In this document: piece by piece, positions 1 to 11,868 of the stretch | How the letters are laid out: each line of letters begins with the position of its first letter | Numbering within the stretch: the first letter of the stretch is position 1 | From: a virus | Virus genome (UHGV): UHGV-2080389 | Strand: one strand, 5' to 3' | Length of the DNA stretch: 12,452 nucleotides | Made by a program: the position numbers and the translations under genes | The notes under the pieces: generated by a model | What the model was told of the DNA's origin: nothing | The model's input: only the letters and a program-made list of their open reading frames with translations | Database searches by the model: none

Positions 1-392
1 CCCCTCTACCCGATACGCATCTACGTCGGGAAACAACCTGGTATTATCCACTGGAAGCTATTCGCGAAACTGTTGTAAATGCACTGGCTCATCGTGACTG
101 GACACGCTTTGTTGAGATAGAGATTGGCTTGTATAGCAATCGATTTGAAGTTATTAGCCCAGGGGCGCTGAATAATTCGATGTCGATTGAAAAGATGGTT
201 ACAGGTCAGCGATCACCACGCAATACGATTATTATGGAAGTCTTACGTGATTATGGTTACGTTGATTTCAGGGGGATGGGAGTCAGGACAAAGATTATTC
301 CACTAACACAGGCCATGAGTGGCCAACTCCCTGAGTTTACTGCAACAGATGATTACTTGAAAACAATACTTTATCGCTCACCATCTTCTTGA
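1..392 (+). CDS. Putative transcriptional regulator, C-terminal part only (5' end lies outside the window)
   Basis: Frame 3 is open from the window edge to the stop at 390-392. Translation PLPDTHLRRETTWYYPLEAIRETVVNALAHRDWTRF... carries the ALAHRDW-type motif I associate with the HATPase_c_4 C-terminal domain of AlbA_2-type regulators. The tracked ORF 129..392 is only its internal-Met tail. Confidence 0.55.
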   Translation, partial: PLPDTHLRRETTWYYPLEAIRETVVNALAHRDWTRFVEIEIGLYSNRFEVISPGALNNSMSIEKMVTGQRSPRNTIIMEVLRDYGYVDFRGMGVRTKIIPLTQAMSGQLPEFTATDDYLKTILYRSPSS

Positions 393-404
393 TATATAAG
401 GTCT

Positions 405-429
405 GGCCTTTCCATCCATAAGAAAGGCC
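405..429. terminator. Stem-loop between convergent genes (8-bp stem GGCCTTTC/GAAAGGCC, 9-nt loop); possible terminator
   Basis: Inverted repeat read directly from the sequence, lying between the stop at 392 (+) and the stop at 448 (-). Neither strand has a clean U-run after it. Confidence 0.3.
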
Positions 430-447
430 ATTGCTGTAAAAAATAAA

Positions 448-1068
448 TTACCCGCGACTGCAGCCGAAGCTACGGTCGCCATCTCCATATGCTTTTGTAT
501 CGAGTTTAGCTAGGTAGTCGAGACGATTCAGTAATTTATTGTATTCTCCTTCAAAGTTAAAATCATTGACGTCTAAAATATAACGACAATTTTCAGGGTA
601 GTGAACCAATCCCGGATAATCATCCAGTTCCAATCCCAGTGCGCTATACCATGCTCTTACAATCATCATCCTTAAATTTCTTTCAGCCTCATAATCACCT
701 AAATGGTAATAAGCATCTTTATTAAAAAAAAGACCAAGGTGAAAGTGACATTTTCCTTCTTCGGAAAACTCCCGTGCCCAAACATGACGAACACGGTTTG
801 GATATATTCTTTTGCCGTTAGCTGCTCTGGTTCTCTCATTGGCCTCCAACATGGCATTTAATGCATTACGGAAACGGGATATGGCACCAGGCTCTAGATT
901 AGGAAAACAGCAAACAGTGTCACCTCTGTCTAAAATGGGTGGATAATGAACATCAACACGTAACGCCATTGTTCTGGGGAATTCACTGATAGCATCATTG
1001 ACGACTCGTTCAATATGTTTTTTATAGGCGAGCACATGCTCACCATGGGAACCATGATATAATTCCAT
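448..1068 (-). CDS. YagK/YfjJ-family protein (inovirus Gp2-like domain), typical cargo of CP4-type islands
   Basis: 206-aa ORF with ATG at 1066-1068 and AGGA about 8 nt upstream. The protein resembles the YagK/YfjJ family of the E. coli K-12 CP4-6 and CP4-57 elements (recalled, not searched). Confidence 0.7.
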   Translation of the reverse strand: MELYHGSHGEHVLAYKKHIERVVNDAISEFPRTMALRVDVHYPPILDRGDTVCCFPNLEPGAISRFRNALNAMLEANERTRAANGKRIYPNRVRHVWAREFSEEGKCHFHLGLFFNKDAYYHLGDYEAERNLRMMIVRAWYSALGLELDDYPGLVHYPENCRYILDVNDFNFEGEYNKLLNRLDYLAKLDTKAYGDGDRSFGCSRG

Positions 1069-1270
1069 GTTTCGATCCTGTCGTTAGCCCTACGGCTTTG
1101 GATAGCCGTATATAGTAATATGATCAGACATAGCTGAATGTCTGTGGTTAGTTATATTAATTAACTATTAATAGTAATGACTGTTATATAATACCTTTCC
1201 AACAATAAAACTTGTTATCAACCCATTACCCATGCAGTAAAATACTTAAAAAGCAACTCTGCAATTATAA

Positions 1271-1447
1271 TCACCCAAAGATGCCATTATCCCAGTGTCT
1301 TTTTACCGTGGAAATACTTATTCCTAAGATCTTTGCCACCTTGGATTGAGAGTAATGCTTAGCCTTCTCACTCTGAATTAAATGGGAATATTTACTTCCT
1401 TCAGGCCTTCCTAGAATTTTCTTTGATTTTGCTTTGTTAGTAGGCAT
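1271..1447 (-). CDS. Small helix-turn-helix protein (58 aa); below the ORF-track size cut-off
   Basis: Hand-translated: ATG at 1445-1447 preceded by GAGGG about 6 nt upstream, TGA at 1271-1273. Product MPTNKAKSKKILGRPEGSKYSHLIQSEKAKHYSQSKVAKILGISISTVKRHWDNGIFG contains an HTH-like segment (SQSKVAKILGISISTVKRHW). Same orientation as flanking genes. Confidence 0.4.
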   Translation of the reverse strand: MPTNKAKSKKILGRPEGSKYSHLIQSEKAKHYSQSKVAKILGISISTVKRHWDNGIFG

Positions 1448-1529
1448 CTTTTACCCTCATCAAGCTATTAGGTACTAACTCCATACTGTCGAGATGTATG
1501 CAACTAAGTGGTTATGCTTAACATTGGTA

Positions 1530-2294
1530 TCAGAAAGTATGGCTTACTTCACCGTTAAAGGGGTTAATAATGATGGCATCTCCTCCTTTCATCGCCTTTT
1601 GAGGTGTATCGCCTTCGGCAATCACAGGGACCATTACCGCTAGATCATTTGTGTAATAAATTGGTATCCAGCAATAGCATGATTGTTTAGGGGGAGTTTT
1701 ATTTCTTTTCAATACTGCTTCAACTCCAAATGTAATAAGTTCAAAGATTGGCATAATCACAATGCTGCTCAAATCAAAAAAACAACCATCGTAGACTGTT
1801 TCCTTTATCAGTATGATATTAGATAACCCTCCTGCAATGAGATGTTTGTGGTTCACGCGCCGATCTGTGTAAATAAAAATTGCTTTTTTTACATTGAAAC
1901 TTTTTATAATGTATGAGAGCTTTTCATGAATTAATTTTTTTTCGCTCTTACCCATCTTATCATGAGGTATTTTGTGCGCATAAAAATCTTGATCGACAAC
2001 CTCGTTCCGGTGTCGAATGTGAGTGTTCCAGACGGAATGAAAAAACTCTTCGTAAGTTAATTTTGGCTCCCCCCGTGCTATTGACGGGACCTTCTCTTCA
2101 AAAATACAGCCTAATGTTGACTCCAAAGTTTGAGCTATATGATATTGCGATGTTATTTTATTCAATGCTGGGACTGTGGCGTTTAATAAAAATGATATCA
2201 CCTCTGACCTGGAGTATCCTTTTGCATTGCTATAGTCGTCAATTGCATCAATAGTAGAACTATTGTTTACGCTGAAAGTGATGCGTTTTTTCAT
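1530..2294 (-). CDS. Hypothetical protein with an N-terminal ribbon-helix-helix-like segment and a ~200-aa C-terminal region of unknown function; AT-rich
   Basis: 254-aa ORF with ATG at 2292-2294. N-terminus RITFSVNNSSTIDAIDDYSNAKGYSRSEVISFLLN has the beta-strand/helix pattern of RHH (CopG/Arc-type) domains. I recognise no family for the rest. Base composition is visibly more AT-rich than the surrounding genes. Confidence 0.6.
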   Translation of the reverse strand: MKKRITFSVNNSSTIDAIDDYSNAKGYSRSEVISFLLNATVPALNKITSQYHIAQTLESTLGCIFEEKVPSIARGEPKLTYEEFFHSVWNTHIRHRNEVVDQDFYAHKIPHDKMGKSEKKLIHEKLSYIIKSFNVKKAIFIYTDRRVNHKHLIAGGLSNIILIKETVYDGCFFDLSSIVIMPIFELITFGVEAVLKRNKTPPKQSCYCWIPIYYTNDLAVMVPVIAEGDTPQKAMKGGDAIIINPFNGEVSHTF

Positions 2295-2379
2295 ATGTGA
2301 CCTTGAATTTTGTTAATGTGAGATGTGATAAATAGTATTAATCTCCCCCCATTGTTAATGGAAGGTTTGTATTAACTAA

Positions 2380-2405
2380 CCCGGCTATTCTTTAGAATAG
2401 CCGGG
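2380..2405. repeat. Perfect 11-bp inverted repeat (CCCGGCTATTC-TTTA-GAATAGCCGGG)
   Basis: Read directly from the sequence. It sits 12 nt downstream (minus strand) of the AlpA-like stop and upstream of the 254-aa gene start; an adjacent GGAGGCCTC is also palindromic. Confidence 0.5.
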
Positions 2406-2416
2406 GGAGGCCTCTA

Positions 2417-2638
2417 TTAGTTACTATATACTGAGAAGGTTAATAGGTATCTATCAATGTCTTTACGTGACCAATAGTGTCGGTTTTTAATTTTCTTCGG
2501 TCGCGGTAAACCATTAGGCAGTTTGTCTTTGCAAAGCCAAGCTCGAATAGTTTGTACTTCATAGCCAATAATATTAGCTAACTCGCGGGTAGAAATTAGT
2601 TGTGACTGAGAGGGTTTTTGATGTTTGATATCGCTCAT
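2417..2638 (-). CDS. AlpA-family phage/island transcriptional regulator (excisionase-like HTH)
   Basis: 73-aa ORF with ATG at 2636-2638 and a GGGGTG RBS. The motif STRELANIIGYEVQTIRAWLCKDKLPNGLPRPKKIKNRHYWSRKDIDRYL matches the AlpA/Xis-like pattern (HTH followed by a basic wing and conserved W). Lies next to a P4-type integrase. Confidence 0.7.
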   Translation of the reverse strand: MSDIKHQKPSQSQLISTRELANIIGYEVQTIRAWLCKDKLPNGLPRPKKIKNRHYWSRKDIDRYLLTFSVYSN

Positions 2639-3138
2639 TTCATCACCCCAACATTTGATATGTGGGCAAATAAGACGATCATTGTTTTTAACAGAGATGA
2701 AAGAATGAAATGAAAAGGGGTGAATATGGGGTCTCTATCGGGATCGGGGTCGCTACTACTACCATCCGATGAAGATGATGATGAGTTTTTTGATGACGTT
2801 GTTGAACTTCGGCGTGAGCGGGAAGTATTCCCCTTTGGTGGAAAAAGGCATGTTATAGTATTGACTACATTCCTAATAGCAACTAAAAGTTTTGAAACAC
2901 GGTGCCAAAGAGGTAGTATTCGGTCAGTACTACTATTATTAAAACGCTGAATTGTTGTTTCCCAAAAATTAGAACTTTTGTTTTTAGTCGGATGTAAACC
3001 CCATCTCGCTCTGATTTCCGCACTTCGGTCTTCTCTTGATACAGTTATTGGGTTAGTCACTGTAGTTAATCTCCTGCTTAGTGAGTGAATGTAGTTAGCA
3101 GTAATAAAAGATAACTGAAAAAAAATTTCTGTCAACAC
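2635..3138 (-). CDS. Questionable ORF: Ser-rich, low-complexity product; starts with GTG in an AT-rich stretch
   Basis: Open frame whose TGA overlaps the AlpA-like ATG (ATGA). It contains no internal ATG until the last few codons and its product is low complexity (SSTTSSKNSSSSSSDGSSSDPDPD). It overlaps the plus-strand ORF 2726-2950; at most one of the two is real. Confidence 0.2.
   Translation of the reverse strand: MLTEIFFQLSFITANYIHSLSRRLTTVTNPITVSREDRSAEIRARWGLHPTKNKSSNFWETTIQRFNNSSTDRILPLWHRVSKLLVAIRNVVNTITCLFPPKGNTSRSRRSSTTSSKNSSSSSSDGSSSDPDPDRDPIFTPFHFILSSLLKTMIVLFAHISNVGVMK
2726..2950 (+). CDS. Questionable small ORF (74 aa) with an acidic stretch, divergent from the AlpA-like gene
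   Basis: ATG at 2726 preceded by AAGGGG at 2715-2720 (5-nt spacer). Product has GS-rich and acidic segments (SDEDDDEFFDDVVEL) and uses several codons rare in E. coli. The divergent arrangement mirrors yfjH/alpA in CP4-57, which is only weak support. Confidence 0.25.
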   Translation: MGSLSGSGSLLLPSDEDDDEFFDDVVELRREREVFPFGGKRHVIVLTTFLIATKSFETRCQRGSIRSVLLLLKR

Positions 3139-3174
3139 ATGTGATTTTATGTAAGTTGTTGATATTTGATAAAA

Positions 3175-4494
3175 TCAACGCTTATCAACGTTGTTTTTTA
3201 TTTTTGCTTCTTCTAAGATCCATAATTCAACTTTTTCATGCCATTTTCTTAGCAAATCTAATGGACGGCGGCGATAGTGCTTTTCAGCAAGAGCGCTAGG
3301 CTTATGGCCCATAATCTGCGCAACAATACCTGTTGGTACTTCGACCCATTCAGCGAGGGTCCCAAAACTACGGCGCAATCCGTGCAAGCTGATATGTGGT
3401 AACTCCGCGCGAGTTAATGCTCTATTATGTGCTGAACGCGGTTCAATAATTTTGCCACTTTTGCTGTTACTTCTGAAAACCCAATTCTCCTCGTTTGTAC
3501 CACGATTGGGGATCTCCATCAGTGAGCGTAACAAGTCAGAAACATAGGGAGTGAGGGGGATAATTCGCTCGCCTTCGATCTTGTCTTTAATTCTCATGCT
3601 TGACCATTTGAAATCTATGTCAGACCAGCGAAGTGAGGAAATTTCTTCACGCCGTGCACCGGTGAGCAAAAGCACTTGGAGATAGGCTGATGCAATGGGA
3701 TTATTGAGGCTACGCACGGCACTGAACCAGCTTTTGAGCTGTTCTTTTTGTAAGCAATCTCCCGCTTTGCTCGCTGATATTGGAACCATTTTTCTCACGT
3801 TATGATCTTGTGCAAGATCGCCATCGATTATTCCCTGATATTTTTTCTGGTAATTAGCCCATTTGATGAATGCACGCAACAGACGGTAGGCATGAGCAGT
3901 GACGGTAGGCCGATTTTGTCTCTCTGTACTTAGCCATTCGGCAATGTTCTCTGGTGTTAGTTCTGATAATGGTCGGTCGAGCAGGCTAGCCAGTGGCCCA
4001 GGTGAGGTTGGGCCCCGGCCTCTTTTTTTACTTTCGCCTCCACGACTGGACAAGTTAACGTGATCGGCAATGTAGCGTGCAGAGTAGGGGCGTTTAGTTT
4101 TTGCGCTGATTCCGGTTCTCAATTCATCAAGATAATCTTCCCAAGCGCTTGAAAAGGTTGCCTTCGTTTTACGAGATTCAGCCTGCTGTGATTCCGCTTC
4201 AGCAATTTTTTCCGCCTTAGCTATACGCGGATCTATCCCAGTATCGATTAATGTTTGCAGTCGCCTGGCTTCGGCCCTCGCATCATCAATCCTCCAATCG
4301 TTAATGTTGCCAATGGTCATGCGAAGGGTTTTTCCCGCATACAGGCTTTGGAATACAAAGGCTTTTGCTCCACGAGTTGCTCGACATGCCAAGCTTGTTA
4401 CGTCCGTATCCCAAAGGAAAACTTGGTTTTTCCCTTCAGGTAAAGTAAATCTTCGAATTCGTTCGAAGGTTAGTTTTTGTCTTGAAAGCGCCAT
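3175..4494 (-). CDS. int: P4-family (CP4-type) tyrosine integrase
   Basis: 439-aa ORF with ATG at 4492-4494. N-terminal arm-binding-like region (GKTLRMTIGNINDWRIDDARAEARRLQTLIDTGIDP) and C-terminal catalytic signatures (HGLRRSFGT ... EKHYRR, with the Tyr nucleophile context). The start is adjacent to the tRNA-derived att core. Confidence 0.9.
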   Translation of the reverse strand: MALSRQKLTFERIRRFTLPEGKNQVFLWDTDVTSLACRATRGAKAFVFQSLYAGKTLRMTIGNINDWRIDDARAEARRLQTLIDTGIDPRIAKAEKIAEAESQQAESRKTKATFSSAWEDYLDELRTGISAKTKRPYSARYIADHVNLSSRGGESKKRGRGPTSPGPLASLLDRPLSELTPENIAEWLSTERQNRPTVTAHAYRLLRAFIKWANYQKKYQGIIDGDLAQDHNVRKMVPISASKAGDCLQKEQLKSWFSAVRSLNNPIASAYLQVLLLTGARREEISSLRWSDIDFKWSSMRIKDKIEGERIIPLTPYVSDLLRSLMEIPNRGTNEENWVFRSNSKSGKIIEPRSAHNRALTRAELPHISLHGLRRSFGTLAEWVEVPTGIVAQIMGHKPSALAEKHYRRRPLDLLRKWHEKVELWILEEAKIKNNVDKR

Positions 4495-4566
4495 TTTTAG
4501 GGTTCCTGTTGGGGATTACGGTTTACAGTAATGTAACGGCTGGTGTAAGTAAATTGAAAGGATAAA

Positions 4567-4592
4567 CATCAACACTCATCAATTTACATCAA
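4567..4592. repeat. Three CATCAA direct repeats at exact 10-bp spacing (4567, 4577, 4587), the outer two extended to ACATCAACA
   Basis: Read directly from the sequence, between the integrase start (4494) and the att core (4678), followed by an AT-rich tract. Confidence 0.5.
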
Positions 4593-4677
4593 CAGGTTTT
4601 TTGTTTTAATATTATGATTTAAAATGATAAATTTGTGATTTCTGATGGTTGTTCAAGCAGTTAAAATATAAAAACTT

Positions 4678-4726
4678 CGCATTCGTAATGCGAAGGTCGT
4701 AGGTTCGACTCCTATTATCGGCACCA
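4678..4726 (+). other. 3' segment of tRNA-Thr(CGU) (anticodon arm through CCA) without the 5' half: att core / displaced partial tRNA copy
   Basis: CGCATTCGTAATGCGAAGGTCGTAGGTTCGACTCCTATTATCGGCACCA contains an anticodon loop with CGT, a T-arm GGTTCGACTCC, an acceptor 3' strand TATCGGC and CCA. No matching 5' acceptor strand (GCCGATA) or D-arm lies upstream. It resembles the thrW 3' end, the attachment site used by P22-type integrases and by CP4-6 (recalled). Confidence 0.75.
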
Positions 4727-4740
4727 TTTAAATCAATAAG

Positions 4741-5064
4741 TTACCTAGCATTTAAGTAAACCACGTTCTCCTCTTGTGCCGTATTTGTGCCATTGCGACT
4801 TATAATCGCATCGATTTTGCTTGCGTGCTCGGTGAGATGCCCGGCTGAAAGGTGGGCGTATCTTTGAACCATTTCGAGAGTTTCCCATCCTCCCATCTCT
4901 TTAAGTGCAAGAAGAGAGACACCGGACTGAACCAGCCAGCTTGCCCAGGTATGCCTCAGATCATGGAAGCGGAAGTTGCTAATGCCTGCCCGCTTTAACG
5001 CTCCCTTCAGAAATCCATCCATCTCAATTAGTGACATTTGTTTCATTTCTTCCCACTCCGCCAC
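4741..5064 (-). pseudogene. int: C-terminal remnant of a P22-type tyrosine integrase
   Basis: Product [42 protein letters not shown] matches the conserved C-terminal catalytic region of P22-like Int. The tracked 'M' start is a GTG. The frame is closed by a stop roughly 16 codons upstream, and there is no room for the ~280 missing N-terminal codons before the next genes. Confidence 0.7.
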
Positions 5065-7022: not shown

Positions 7023-7187
7023 ATAGACCTCCTGATGAACTTTGGTGGTGTGGTAGGTGGGAGACCTATTTCGACCTGTTTCGGCCTACTTCAATTCGGC
7101 AATAGTCCCGCAGGCCTCGCCGCTTTACGTGCGACATATTCCCGTCCATGAACCCTTCACCACACCCCAAAGTTCACTTTGGTTATT

Positions 7188-7202
7188 GCGCTTTGTCAGC
7201 GC
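7188..7202 (-). promoter_or_regulatory. nutL boxB hairpin, P22 type (transcript reads GCGCUGACAAAGCGC: 5-bp stem, GACAA loop)
   Basis: Plus strand gcgctttgtcagcgc. Located in the PL leader between the PL start (about 7264) and the N-like start (7022). The 15-mer matches the P22 boxB-left RNA as I recall it. Confidence 0.55.
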
Positions 7203-7270
7203 CGTAGATTCATATTTGAATCGTTGTATATTCACCGCCCTGGTGAGTAGTGCGTCCTGCTGATGTGTTT

Positions 7271-7333
7271 AGTATCACCGCCAGTGGTATTTATGTCAAC
7301 ACCGCTAGAGATAATTTATCACCGCAGATGGTT
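7271..7333 (-). promoter_or_regulatory. Lambda-type OL1-OL2-OL3 operators with PL (-10 GATACT = plus 7271-7276; -35 TTGACA = plus 7294-7299; 17-bp spacer)
   Basis: OL1 at 7273-7289 (TATCACCGCCAGTGGTA), OL2 at 7297-7313 (one mismatch to lambda OL2), OL3 at 7317-7333 (TATCACCGCAGATGGTT). These are the lambda 17-mers from memory. Confidence 0.85.
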
Positions 7334-7418
7334 ATCTGTATGTTTTTTATATGAATTTATTTTTTGCAGGGGTGCATTGTTTGGTAGGTGAGAGATCTGA
7401 ACTGCTATGTTTAGTGAG

Positions 7419-7448
7419 TTGTATCTATTTATTTTCAAATAGATACAA
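7419..7448. repeat. Perfect 12-bp inverted repeat (TTGTATCTATTT-ATTTTC-AAATAGATACAA)
   Basis: Read directly from the sequence, between OL3 and the tIMM-like terminator. Confidence 0.5.
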
Positions 7449-7485
7449 TTGGTTATGTGTTCTTGGGTGAGGGGGATCGTGAGGC

Positions 7486-7511
7486 AAAGAAAACCCGGCT
7501 CTGTGGCCGGG
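7486..7511 (-). terminator. Intrinsic terminator ending the leftward cI/rex-slot transcript (tIMM-like)
   Basis: Minus strand reads CCCGGC-CACAGA-GCCGGG followed by UUUUCUUUG, immediately after the last rex-slot stop at 7520-7522. Confidence 0.6.
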
Positions 7512-7519
7512 AATAACAT

Positions 7520-7898
7520 TTAGGAATCAAGGTCAGGTAGCATGATTTTCTCAATCAACGTCAATGCCCTTTGGTCTCGTTCAGCAAAATATTTAGGAGC
7601 GTACTGAGGCAGCCACACTTCGTTGAAGTATTGTTTGAAATCTGCAATATTCGTTTGGGTATAGACGTACCGGGAATGTCCGGCCATCTGGGTACTCATG
7701 GTTATATGTTGGGAATGTCTTCGGCTCAACCCCCCGGTTGTCACGGAGCCATTGCGAGAAAACCCTACCCTCTGAAATATCAGGGACCATTTTTTCTGGC
7801 AGCGTATATCCGGCCTGTTCAAGTGGCGCAACCAAGTTAAACGTCAGTTCATTAAGCATAGAAAAGTGCGTATGAGGAACTCTGCCTCGGTTTGTCAT
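7520..7898 (-). pseudogene. Disrupted C-terminal portion of the KilA-N-domain gene (two ORF fragments in different frames)
   Basis: ORF 7593..7898 is in the same frame as the KilA-N ORF, separated from it by one TAA (7938-7940) with 13 sense codons between that TAA and the next ATG. ORF 7520..7831 is in the +1 frame. Protein-like sequence runs in the first frame up to about ...FPVRLYPNEY and continues in the second from about ...NIADFKQYFNEVWLPQYAPKYFAERDQ, so the switch is near 7640-7665. Confidence 0.4.
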
Positions 7899-7937
7899 AT
7901 ACCGCTTAAGGTGGATAGGGAGTTCGGCAGGCGCTCT

Positions 7938-8279
7938 TTAACCTGACATCCACTCACGCACCCATCTCGATACTTGCACTGCAAATTTTGGAGATAGCCA
8001 CTGAGCTAAATTAATTGCGATGTCTGGATGAACCCAAGTCCCTTGATTCTCTGCTCTTCCGCCTTTAAATGATTGAATTAACTCCGATATGGGAATCCCC
8101 ATATCGCGTGATAATTCATCAAAAAAATCTTGTGTTGTTTTTAGTCGTGTATAGTCAGCAAGTAGCTTCCCCGCAGACTTGCACATCGCGGTGGCATTGA
8201 TGTATCCGTCTTTGGTGCGAAGATGGATGACTTCTCCATCAACTTCTCTAGCGATTAATGCAAGTTGAAATTGTGTCAT
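7938..8279 (-). CDS. KilA-N (APSES-like) DNA-binding domain protein in the rexAB position
   Basis: 113-aa ORF with ATG at 8277-8279 and AGGA 7 nt upstream, 31 nt downstream of the cI stop. Signature GTWVHPDIAINLAQWLSPKFAVQVSRWV is typical of the KilA-N domain. Confidence 0.7.
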   Translation of the reverse strand: MTQFQLALIAREVDGEVIHLRTKDGYINATAMCKSAGKLLADYTRLKTTQDFFDELSRDMGIPISELIQSFKGGRAENQGTWVHPDIAINLAQWLSPKFAVQVSRWVREWMSG

Positions 8280-8310
8280 AAATCATCCTATTACGTGAAA
8301 AATAAAACAA

Positions 8311-9027
<717 letters not shown>

Positions 9028-9034
9028 TTAAATC

Positions 9035-9100
9035 TATCACCGCAAGGGATAAACTTCTAACACCGTGCGTGTTGACTATTTTACCTCTAGCGGTGATAAT
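9035..9100. promoter_or_regulatory. Lambda OR3-OR2-OR1 with divergent PRM/PR (PR -35 TTGACT 9072-9077, -10 GATAAT 9095-9100)
   Basis: OR3 at 9035-9051 (TATCACCGCAAGGGATA), OR2 at 9058-9074 (TAACACCGTGCGTGTTG), OR1 at 9082-9098 (one mismatch to lambda OR1). The PR spacer is 17 bp. Confidence 0.9.
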
Positions 9101-9124
9101 GGTTGCCTGTACTAAGGAGGTTGT

Positions 9125-9325
9125 ATGGAACAACGCATAACCCTGAAAGATTATGCAATACGCTTTGGGCAAACCAAGACGGCTAAAGATCTCGGCGTAT
9201 ATCAAAGCGCGATTAACAAGGCCATTCATGCAGGCCGAAAGATTTTTTTAACTATAAACGCTGATGGAAGCGTTTATGCGGAAGAAATAAAGCCCTTCCC
9301 AAGTAACAAAAAAACAACTGCATAA
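9125..9325 (+). CDS. cro: Cro repressor (lambda type, 66 aa)
   Basis: [66 protein letters not shown] differs from lambda Cro at two positions from memory. AGGAGG RBS upstream. Confidence 0.95.
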
Positions 9326-9333
9326 GTAACACC

Positions 9334-9378
9334 GCTCTTTTCACAATGGACATTCGTCCTACGTCGCTGACAAAGCGA
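9334..9378 (+). promoter_or_regulatory. nutR: boxA-like CGCTCTTTT (9334-9342) and P22-type boxB hairpin UCGCUGACAAAGCGA (9364-9378)
   Basis: Located between the cro stop and cII. The boxB has the same GACAA loop and 5-bp stem architecture as nutL. A small hairpin (ATGCGT-TTCC-ACGCAT, 9409-9424) follows and may be part of a tR1-like region. Confidence 0.55.
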
Positions 9379-9462
9379 GCCCCAAGATATCTGACCAACT
9401 AAGGCCATATGCGTTTCCACGCATACCTTTCAACTAACTATTCACTATTGGAAAATTAACAA

Positions 9463-9759
9463 ATGACACAAGCAAGTTATAGCAAACCAACACAGCGAGA
9501 AATTGATCGCGCTGAAACTGATTTACTCATCAACCTGTCAACGCTTACCCAGCGCGGTCTGGCAAAGATGATTGGCTGTCATGAATCGAAGATAAGCAGA
9601 ACGGACTGGAGGTTTATTGCTTCGGTCTTGTGTGCTTTCGGAATGGCATCAGACATCAGTCCGATTAGCAGGGCTTTTAAGTATGCATTGGATGGAATCA
9701 CAAAGAAAAAATCCCCGGCCGCCACCGAGGATTTTAAGCAAATTGATATGCAATTCTGA
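9463..9759 (+). CDS. cII: CII-like transcriptional activator
   Basis: 98 aa. The central ...SKISR...W... segment and the C-terminus KKKSPAATEDFKQIDMQF resemble lambda CII (...KKRPAATERSEQIQMEF), but the protein overall is a different allele. Confidence 0.7.
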   Translation: MTQASYSKPTQREIDRAETDLLINLSTLTQRGLAKMIGCHESKISRTDWRFIASVLCAFGMASDISPISRAFKYALDGITKKKSPAATEDFKQIDMQF

Positions 9760-9791
9760 GGTCATTACTGGATCAATCTACAGGAGTAATT

Positions 9792-9953
9792 ATGACAAAA
9801 CGTCGTAAGAAATACCAGGAAAAAGAAGAGATTCGACACCCTGATTCACCTGAGGGATTAGTGGTAGCCGCAGCAAATAACAGGGCGTTCGCAGAGCGCC
9901 TTGTTGGTGTTTACAGACTAGCCAAAGCAGGAGTGAAACATGGGCGTCGTTAA
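9792..9953 (+). CDS. Small hypothetical ORF (53 aa); below the ORF-track cut-off
   Basis: ATG at 9792 with AGGAG 5 nt upstream. Product MTKRRKKYQEKEEIRHPDSPEGLVVAAANNRAFAERLVGVYRLAKAGVKHGRR, stop at 9951-9953. It overlaps the next ORF by 14 nt. Confidence 0.4.
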   Translation: MTKRRKKYQEKEEIRHPDSPEGLVVAAANNRAFAERLVGVYRLAKAGVKHGRR

Positions 9954-10110
9954 GTTAGCTGATTACAGGCCTCAACTGGAGGTCGTGGAGCATCGCGTGG
10001 CAGAACTCGAAGATGGCTACACTCGGACTGCAAACACACTGTTAGAAGCCGCCATGCTTTACCGAATACTGAAGAATTACGCCAAAACCCTGACAGGAGC
10101 AGGAGTATGA
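9940..10110 (+). pseudogene. O-like replication initiator: N-terminal stub only (56 codons)
   Basis: ATG at 9940 with AGGAG upstream. The segment VAELEDGYTRTANTLLEA aligns with the lambda O N-terminus (VADLDDGYARLSNMLLEA, recalled). The frame then ends after about 20 more codons, with no room for the remaining ~250 codons of O or for P. Confidence 0.45.
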
Positions 10111-10195
10111 AGTCAGAGATAACAATCAACTAATACTGTTTTGTTGATTTTTGCTTGTGATTGGCGTTCTGGTCTGATTTTTGTGGAGTAAGTTG

Positions 10196-10581
10196 ATGCG
10201 TGATATTCAGATGGTTCTTGAGCGTTGGGGAGCGTGGGCGGCTAATAATCATGAANNNNNNNNNNNNNNNNNNNNATTGCCGCCGGTTTTAAGGGATTAA
10301 TTCCTTCAAAAGTAAAATCTCGCCCGCAATGTTGTGACGATGACGCGATGATCATTTGCGGGTGCATGGCCCGTCTGAAAAAGAACAACAGCGATTTGCA
10401 CGATTTATTAGTAGATTATTATGTAGTCGGTATGACATTCATGTCACTGGCAGGTAAGCATTGCTGCTCTGATGGTTATATCGGGAAAAGGTTACAGAAG
10501 GCTGAGGGCATAATTGAAGGGATGTTAATGGCATTAGATATCCGGTTAGAGATGGATATCGTTGTTAATAACTCTAATTAA
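10196..10581 (+). CDS. Q: Q-family late antiterminator (phage 82 / QuuD type), interrupted by a 20-N gap
   Basis: ATG at 10196 (GGAG 7 nt upstream) gives [20 protein letters not shown] up to the N-run. After the N-run the frame of ORF 10348..10581 reads [36 protein letters not shown]...VVNNSN. Both halves match my recollection of Q82/QuuD. Confidence 0.75.
10256..10275. other. Run of 20 N: assembly or scaffold gap, not biological sequence
   Basis: Literal n characters. Flanking Q codons are out of frame by one across the run, so its length is a placeholder. Confidence 0.95.
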
Positions 10582-10770: not shown

Positions 10771-11868
10771 TTAGAACTGGTAAACCAGACCTACAGCAAC
10801 GATGTCATCAGTGCTTACACCGAGTGCTTTAGTGAAGTCATTTTTGTCAAGCAGGTTGATTTTGTAATCAACGAAAGTAGACATATTTTTGTTGAAGTAA
10901 TAGGTTGCACCTACATCAACATATTTGACTAAGTCCTGATCGCCCCATACTCCAAGATCTTTACCTTTAGATTGCAGGTAAGCAACGGACGGACGCAGAC
11001 CGAAATCGAACTGATATTGTGCAACAGCTTCGAAGTTTTGGGCTTTATTAGCAACGAAGTGATCAGCAAATACAGTCATATTCTGGGTTTCAGAATAGGT
11101 AGTGGCCAGGTAAATGTTGTTAGCGTCATATTTCAGACCTGCGGCCCAAACTTCTGCATTTTTACCGGAAGCAAATACTTCAGGAAGAACTTTCCCTGCA
11201 TTAACTTGAGTGTCGGTACGATCAGATTTCGCATAAGTTGCACCGATACCGAATCCTTCGTATTCATAGGTAGCAGAGAAACCGAAGCCATCACCGTTAC
11301 CTTCAGTGTAGTTATCGAAATCGCTACGATCGTTTTTGCCTTGGTACTGAGCAGCAAAGTTCAGACCATCAACCAGACCAAAGAAGTCGTTGTTACGATA
11401 GGTTGCAACACCAGTGGTGCGACCAGTCATGAACACATCTGTTTGGGTCCAGGTATCGCCACCGAATTCTGGCAGAACGTCAGTCCACGCACCGATGTCG
11501 TATGCTACACCGTAGTTACGGCCGTAATCGATTGAGCCGTAGTCACCGAATTTCAGGCCTGCAAATGCAAGACGGGTTTTGTCTTTGGAGGAACCTTGAG
11601 ATTCAGCGCGGTTGCCTTTGAATTCATATTCCCACTGACCGAAACCAGTCAGTTGATCGTTGATTTGGGTTTCACCTTTGAAGCCAAGACGGGCATAAGT
11701 AGTATCACCATCATCTGCATCATTAGAGGAGAAGTAGTGCTTGGCATTAACTTTCCCGTACAGATCCAGCTTGTTACTGTCTTTATTATAAATTTCAGCT
11801 GCCTGAGCAGACATCGCCATCAGTACTGATGCAGCTACAGCAGAAATTGCCACTGTTAATTTTTTCAT
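10771..11868 (-). CDS. nmpC: Prophage-borne outer-membrane porin (NmpC/Lc family, OmpC-like), with signal peptide
   Basis: 365-aa ORF. N-terminal signal [23 protein letters not shown] followed by AEIYNK, and the classic porin C-terminus ...VGLVYQF. Its position between Q and the lysis genes, on the opposite strand, is that of nmpC in DLP12 and lc in phage PA-2. Confidence 0.9.

Follow-up and report, generated by a model that had tools for sequence, protein, structure and literature searches.

The DNA analysed here, a stretch of 12,452 nucleotides from the UHGV virus genome UHGV-2080389 (the window), carries a lambda-type immunity region in which the slot between cI and N is occupied by a segment other than rexA-rexB. 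We suggest that this segment (7512-8310) is very probably a pseudogene of the BstA family, whose members are abortive-infection genes of prophages, and that it occupies the cI-N 'moron' slot, the site of rexA-rexB in lambda. The reading is built on four kinds of direct observation: the homology of the gene, its lesions, the anatomy of the locus, and the distribution of its alleles.

BstA was characterised in the Salmonella prophage BTP1, where its gene lies downstream of cI and expression in the lysogen is high (Owen et al. 2021, Cell Host Microbe, PMC8585504). The protein provides an abortive-infection defence in which the phage cannot replicate its DNA and the infected cell dies. Stop-codon mutants (bstA-STOP) are without defence, and homologues from Klebsiella and E. 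coli are likewise protective (PMC8585504). Owen et al. describe the placement of the gene behind the repressor as conserved and the cI-N region as a recognised hotspot of mosaicism, and they point out that the equivalent site of lambda is occupied by rexAB (PMC8585504). It had been proposed in the original prediction that KilA-N proteins are not a characterised occupant of this slot, which disagrees with the order of cI, KilA-N/BstA, and terminator described by Owen et al. (2021, PMC8585504). Table S1 of that study includes E. coli O178:H19 2012C-4431 (PMC8585504), and we found that this strain encodes a 301-aa homologue of the BstA-Ec type, with 42% identity to BstA-BTP1, directly behind the cI WP_001274755.1, which is identical to the lambda-type cI of E. 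coli D5; the junction lies immediately behind the cI stop. A defence gene of the KilA-N type has therefore been documented before in the slot of the lambda rex genes. Since BstA has been characterised behind cI and the O178:H19 case exists, the proposal of a defence function was right in kind and the claim of novelty was wrong. As for the gene being a candidate for exclusion or defence, what stands is that anti-phage activity has been demonstrated for the family of the intact gene (BstA), but the copy in the window is a pseudogene.

The surroundings of the segment are those of lambda. A lambda-type cI, cro, OR1-3, and OL1-3, the elements that define an imm-lambda region, are all present in the window (Table 1). 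An identical single change relative to lambda, CTCTGGCGG to CTCTAGCGG, is found in OR1 (~9083-9099) and in OL2 (~7297-7313). In the alignment to lambda, homology ends 2-4 nt past the cI stop and restarts exactly at the tIMM hairpin; the rexA-rexB segment of ~1.4 kb has therefore been cleanly replaced by one of ~0.8 kb. Neither rexA nor rexB is present between cI and tIMM, and the ORFs in between match only KilA-N in Pfam. The ATG of the KilA-N ORF follows the cI stop after a spacer of 31 nt, with AGGA upstream of it, and a search for a terminator-like site on the minus strand between cI and this ORF found none. The tIMM-like hairpin (7511-7494), which has 6 bp, all of them GC, and is followed by TTTTCTTTGC, lies 8 nt past the original stop of the gene. 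The placement is thus that of BstA genes, i.e., downstream of the repressor, co-oriented with it, and with a Rho-independent terminator of its own, and this anatomy suggests that the KilA-N ORF is co-transcribed with cI. The original prediction had described lambda-like cI, cro, OL1-3, and OR1-3, a stretch between the cI stop and the terminator that does not encode RexA/RexB, a KilA-N ORF with downstream fragments, and a 31-nt gap without a terminator. Our results agree with this description in all details that can be checked.

Table 1. Features of the immunity region and the rex slot in the window
Feature	Position	Strand	Basis or remark
Near-identical 'lambda immunity + dead bstA' module, ~2.9 kb, PL/OL to cII	7154..9980		Common to many prophage backbones
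PL promoter-like site, TTGACA-17-GATACT	7299-7271		In the OL/PL region
OL3-OL2-OL1 with PL, lambda type	7271..7333	-	Alignment to annotated lambda operators; 1 mismatch, in OL2
Rho-independent terminator, counterpart of lambda tIMM	7484..7511	-	Hairpin CCCGGCCACAGAGCCGGG + TTTTCTTTGC; aligns to lambda just downstream of rexB
BstA_C remnant, codons 115-253 of the intact gene	7520..7937	-	Alignment to the intact 762-bp PhiR5_2 gene
5' part of bstA-family gene, KilA-N ORF, 113 codons	7938..8279	-	Pfam KilA-N, E 1.7e-27, residues 13-112
aba-equivalent position, including the 31-nt cI-bstA spacer and AGGA	8246..8308	-	Putative function, by analogy to BTP1
cI repressor, lambda immunity type, 237 aa	8311..9024	-	HTH_3 + Peptidase_S24 (Pfam); 233/237 residues as in lambda cI (98%)
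OR3-OR2-OR1 with PRM/PR	9025..9124		97% identity to lambda; 1 mismatch, in OR1
PR-like site	9072-9100		Promoter-like site within the OR region
cro, 66-aa ORF	9125..9325	+	Cro annotation in identical loci
cII	9463-9759	+	After cro

Intact versions of the gene, which the original prediction had proposed to look for, are present in phage PhiR5_2 and in E. coli D5 (WP_000191544.1), and the locus is not uniformly degraded. In both, a 762-bp gene directly behind the same type of cI encodes a protein of 253 aa composed of a KilA-N and a BstA_C domain. This is the outcome of the HMM searches that had also been proposed, with KilA-N in the N-terminal part and BstA_C in the C-terminal region of the intact homologue; the name BstA_C is taken from precomputed annotations, whereas our own Pfam scan gave KilA-N alone. 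Homologues in a large protein collection have precomputed Pfam assignments to KilA-N and PF26567 (BstA_C). The intact protein matches PHROG 6287, 'BstA abortive infection system, replication inhibitor', over residues 1-252 (1.8e-82), the same PHROG that is matched by BstA-BTP1 (2.1e-150), and the PADLOC model of BstA over residues 120-237 (2.5e-20). BLASTP aligns it to BstA-BTP1 over residues 133-251 with 29% identity (E 5e-15). NCBIfam contained no model for the intact protein, and nothing useful was found in the literature on phage PhiR5_2. In an alignment of 14 homologues with BstA-BTP1, the residues P166, D167, S169, G171, W177, R179, H194, D198, G199, Y207, P208, F215, and Y231 of the C-terminal domain are invariant and form the motifs PDxS-G, W-R, H-x3-DG, and YP. 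The intact allele thus has both the KilA-N domain and a C-terminal domain homologous to residues ~156-307 of BstA-BTP1. In the window, the latter exists only as a coding remnant, and the positions of F215 and Y231 fall beyond its frameshift.

The lesions of the copy in the window are a stop codon and a frameshift. The 113-aa KilA-N ORF, which itself matches phrog_6287 'BstA' (4.3e-28, profile positions 6-121), ends at a premature TAA at codon 114 (7940-7938), where the intact alleles have GAA (G>T with respect to PhiR5_2, D5, and MB51). Further downstream, two bases (TC) are deleted after codon 211, between 7648 and 7647, and the original stop of the gene is found at 7522-7520. The ORFs 7593-7898 and 7520-7831, i.e., the downstream fragments mentioned above, are two frames of one former reading frame, and in identical loci elsewhere the remnant fragments are annotated as 'PF26567 BstA_C (weak)'. 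Over the whole 762-bp gene, only four differences separate the window from PhiR5_2: a synonymous A/G in codon 4, the change of GAA to TAA, the 2-bp deletion, and a substitution in codon 218. The single uninterrupted two-domain frame needed for BstA defence is thus lost through the TAA at codon 114 and the 2-bp deletion. The product of the window copy is at most a 113-aa KilA-N polypeptide, and the copy is a pseudogene, not a working exclusion gene.

A sequencing artefact was ruled out as the source of the lesions, which recur in many independent assemblies. The complete E. coli genomes EC2641 and 1008S19 are 100% identical to the window over 1001 nt, and an identical stretch of 841 nt was found in 10 of 10 loci sampled from other assemblies. 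Other strains carry fewer or more lesions. Strains H5 and H6 have a 97%-identical allele with the TAA at codon 114 only and are free of the 2-bp deletion, and strain 81 has both lesions of the window together with an extra 1-bp deletion and a frameshifted cI. From this comparison, the order of events was therefore first the stop, then the frameshift, and then further decay, which is the usual course of a pseudogene. At the H5 locus (3001-3762), E114* leaves two intact 113-aa ORFs, one for KilA-N and one for BstA_C starting from Met127. The codon next to the H5 stop differs from that of the window (GGC versus GGT), and otherwise ~270 nt around it are window-like, so that the stop may have recurred or may have been transferred by recombination.

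The dead allele is widespread. Its exact 113-aa product was found on at least 1000 contigs (1970 index blocks), and the intact 253-aa allele on 924 contigs; in the same protein cluster, truncated forms with 69, 81, and 93 aa occur on 86, 9, and 5 contigs, respectively. The 253-aa subfamily is represented in 139 of 5426 complete E. coli genomes, in 22 of them at ≥95% identity and in the other 117 by the 257-aa sister allele (77.5% identical). The sampled loci of the 113-aa allele represent various prophage backbones, from complete-looking ones to remnants. In 13 loci, ungapped extension from the bstA start defined a shared, near-identical module that covers the immunity region (Table 1): its right limit was 7154 in 12 of the 13 loci, its left limit was 9977-10032 in 8 of the 13, with 2-11 mismatches, and came earlier in the rest. 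The simplest reading of these sequences is that the pseudogene is hitch-hiking on a mobile immunity module.

In the Enterobacterales, members of the subfamily are found behind varied repressors: lambda cI, an XRE-type repressor (H5), another LexA-type repressor (MB51), and a Proteus phage cI. In the E. coli H5 and MB51 loci (2950-3000), ~12 nt identical to the 3' end of the lambda-type cI (ACGTTTGGGTGA) stand just upstream of the bstA start, behind the unrelated repressors. This relic looks like the footprint of a module exchange out of an imm-lambda context. In phage vB_EcoS-613R10, a 257-aa sister allele (3968-4741, 86% aa identity) is located away from cI, in the nin region, where it is flanked by the replication genes and Q and has the opposite orientation. 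Relatives are present in at least 217 species-representative genomes from many phyla. A position 'downstream of the repressor' was rejected as a universal trait of the family: the lambdoid members examined from enterobacteria conform to it, but with a crude nearest-ORF method, only 4 of 73 homologues of species representatives outside the Enterobacterales had Peptidase_S24 in the nearest upstream ORF. In eight species representatives, from Stenotrophomonas and relatives, the nearest upstream gene is aceK (isocitrate dehydrogenase kinase/phosphatase), which suggests a fixed chromosomal, non-prophage site in this group. Other neighbours of homologues include AbiTii and SIR2 proteins.

The prophage that carries the module in the window is defective. 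Its O gene is a 56-aa N-terminal stump (9940-10110), and P, ren, and the nin genes are missing (9760-10200), so that the Q-like gene comes almost directly after cII. Only a 107-aa C-terminal piece of the integrase is left (4741-5064). A run of 26 N (10257-10282) lies inside the Q-like antiterminator gene (about 10196-10581) and looks like masking or a small gap rather than a deletion, because the frame is kept on either side of it. Downstream of Q, on the opposite strand, the window carries a gene for a Gram-negative porin of 365 aa (10771-11868; Porin_1, 1e-156), and strain D5 has the same porin between Q and the lysis genes. Such a porin is a known type of lambdoid moron. Adjoining the prophage is a separate integrative element (1-4795) that encodes an integrase (3175-4494) and a protein of the YagK/YfjJ family (448-1068); two more of its ORFs (1530-2294, 254 aa, and 2635-3138, 167 aa) have no Pfam or PADLOC match. 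Elements with 99.9% identity to it are present in E. coli ECONIH4 and in further strains.

The resident BTP1 prophage is protected from its own BstA by aba, a homologue-specific DNA element of 63 bp that spans -29 to +34 of the bstA start codon (PMC8585504). The equivalent region of the window is intact, differing from that of the intact allele only by the synonymous A/G in codon 4, and ~45 nt upstream of the ATG accompany the gene behind other repressors. By analogy with BTP1, the window may hold an aba element. No direct repeat comparable to the CCCGCC(A) of BTP1 was found around the start codon of the window with the tool that recovers the BTP1 repeat (spacing 56); if aba elements are homologue-specific, such a result is to be expected. 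A 7-nt inverted repeat at +12 to +41 (8239-8268), which shows one apparent compensatory change in the 257-aa sister allele, was rejected as a conserved element and attributed to chance: the best inverted repeat in the 5' region of 60 homologues averaged 5.7 nt, compared with 5.56 nt in control windows of the same genes.

It might be argued that the 113-aa KilA-N protein, together with the retained aba-like 5' region, is a maintained product and not mere decay. Such a product might act as a decoy or in a dominant-negative manner against the cognate BstA of related prophages, or the cost of abortive infection might have been dropped and the immunity kept. The stop coincides exactly with the end of KilA-N (Pfam 13-112; stop at codon 114), the intact allele is no more abundant than the dead one, which also speaks against plain decay, and the 10 sampled loci, some of them in complete-looking prophages, are all without further change. 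Natural homologues that consist of the N-domain only have also been reported (Owen et al., PMC8585504), and the presence of E114* on the allele background of H5/H6, where the frameshift is absent, leaves room for some selected role of a KilA-N-only product. However, a recent spread of the linked immunity module explains the uniformity equally well, the abundance is accounted for by this linkage, and the shared stop may stem from recombination, as the central tract of H5 is window-like. The truncations of 69, 81, and 93 aa, which lie inside KilA-N, indicate that the N-domain decays too, and no experiment hints at an effect of a KilA-N domain by itself on BstA. We therefore regard a maintained product as unlikely. 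A more specific form of the idea, in which E114* would be a selected 'KilA-N-only + aba' state that has shed the abortive-infection effector and kept aba, with or without a DNA-binding decoy, against the BstA of competitors, appears quite unlikely; if true, it would account for a truncated allele that equals or exceeds the intact one in abundance and is unchanged on many backbones.

Two further readings concern the architecture of the protein. A split but working system, in which KilA-N and a C-terminal domain restarting at Met127 (ATG at 7898) cooperate as two polypeptides, would make use of the in-frame ATG after the stop (codon 127), and H5/H6 retain, for the downstream part, an intact ORF of 113 aa that is annotated as a separate gene; the covariance analysis of Owen et al. 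likewise indicates two domains with few contacts (PMC8585504). In the window, however, the 2-bp deletion takes the last 42 residues out of frame, including the invariant F215 and Y231 together with other conserved positions, and strain 81 carries a further frameshift. Because of the frameshift, a split system is excluded for the lineage of the window, and overall we hold it to be very unlikely. An ordinary antirepressor or lytic regulator of the KilA-N/Bro type, next to cI by chance, is extremely improbable. Proteins of that type combine KilA-N or Bro-N with a C-terminal ANT/Bro-C domain and have a lytic or independent promoter. It is true that KilA-N domains are present in antirepressor-like proteins and that the N-domain here also matches phrog_129 'transcriptional regulator' (8.3e-24), but there is no ANT or Bro-C match, the C-terminal half being BstA_C instead, the best full-length match is the BstA PHROG, and the gene has the position and orientation of BTP1 bstA in the lysogenic cI operon, with a terminator of its own.

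According to the preferred reading, that of a dead BstA-family gene, the intact gene would be transcribed together with cI from PRM/PRE, with the transcript ending at the tIMM-like hairpin. By analogy with the BstA proteins of BTP1, Klebsiella, and E. coli, the intact protein would block the DNA replication of superinfecting phages at the loss of the infected cell, and this defence activity of the intact allele is inferred from that analogy; on induction, the resident prophage would escape this block through an aba at the start codon of the gene. In the window the gene is dead, with TAA at codon 114, right at the end of the KilA-N domain, and a later 2-bp deletion after codon 211 that takes the conserved end of BstA_C out of frame. 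The dead allele would be riding the ~2.9-kb lambda-immunity module as this recombines among lambdoid and P22-like prophages, its present host being a defective prophage without O, P, and the nin genes. What speaks against this reading is that the 253-aa subfamily is only 22-29% identical to the tested proteins, in the C-domain only, and has a canonical Pfam KilA-N where BstA-BTP1 gives no Pfam match, that no aba-like repeat is recognisable around the start codon of the window, and that most homologues outside the Enterobacterales are not neighbours of a repressor.

There is little here that is scientifically new, as both the role of the cI-N slot as a hotspot for defence genes expressed in lysogens and its occupation by BstA were known before. 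The value lies in annotation: the 113-aa 'KilA-N domain-containing protein' that is widespread in Enterobacteriaceae can be read as the stump of a dead BstA-family gene, and censuses of defence systems should count it neither as a working system nor as an unknown one. The intact 253-aa subfamily, with its canonical KilA-N and BstA_C, is a reasonable further variant of BstA with a putative cognate aba.

Compared with BstA of BTP1, the gene described here has the same setting, a single gene right behind a co-oriented cI, followed by its own Rho-independent terminator and then N, and the protein has the same plan, an N-terminal KilA-N or KilA-N-like domain and a conserved C-terminal domain, with both proteins falling into PHROG 6287 and Pfam BstA_C. 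They differ in length (307 aa in BTP1 and 253 aa here), in the BLASTP alignment, which is limited to the C-domain (29% identity), and in the N-domain, which has no Pfam match at all in BTP1 and is a canonical Pfam KilA-N here. Moreover, the copy in the window is inactivated and lacks terminal repeats of the CCCGCC type around its start codon. The BstA-Ec type of E. coli O178:H19, which belongs to the same length class as the tested BstA-Ec of NCTC10963, occupies the same slot, with an identical lambda-type cI (WP_001274755.1), cro, and a junction at the cI stop. However, its 301-aa protein has 22% identity to the protein here, in the C-domain only, and the spacer and 5' sequence are unrelated.

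RexA/RexB of lambda share with the present gene the slot between cI and tIMM, the operon logic of expression with the repressor in the lysogen, and a defence of the abortive-infection type, but there is no sequence relationship, and a two-protein system of sensor and membrane channel contrasts with BstA as a single DNA-associated protein. Other APSES/KilA-N proteins, such as yeast Mbp1 and Bqt4 and KilA of phage P1, act in transcription or tethering and combine the domain with different partners, and none of them is known to carry BstA_C. Set beside the tested BstA proteins of 298-307 aa, with which it shares 22-29% identity in the C-domain only, the 253-aa subfamily is, on the strength of these sequence comparisons, a divergent branch of the BstA family with predicted defence activity.
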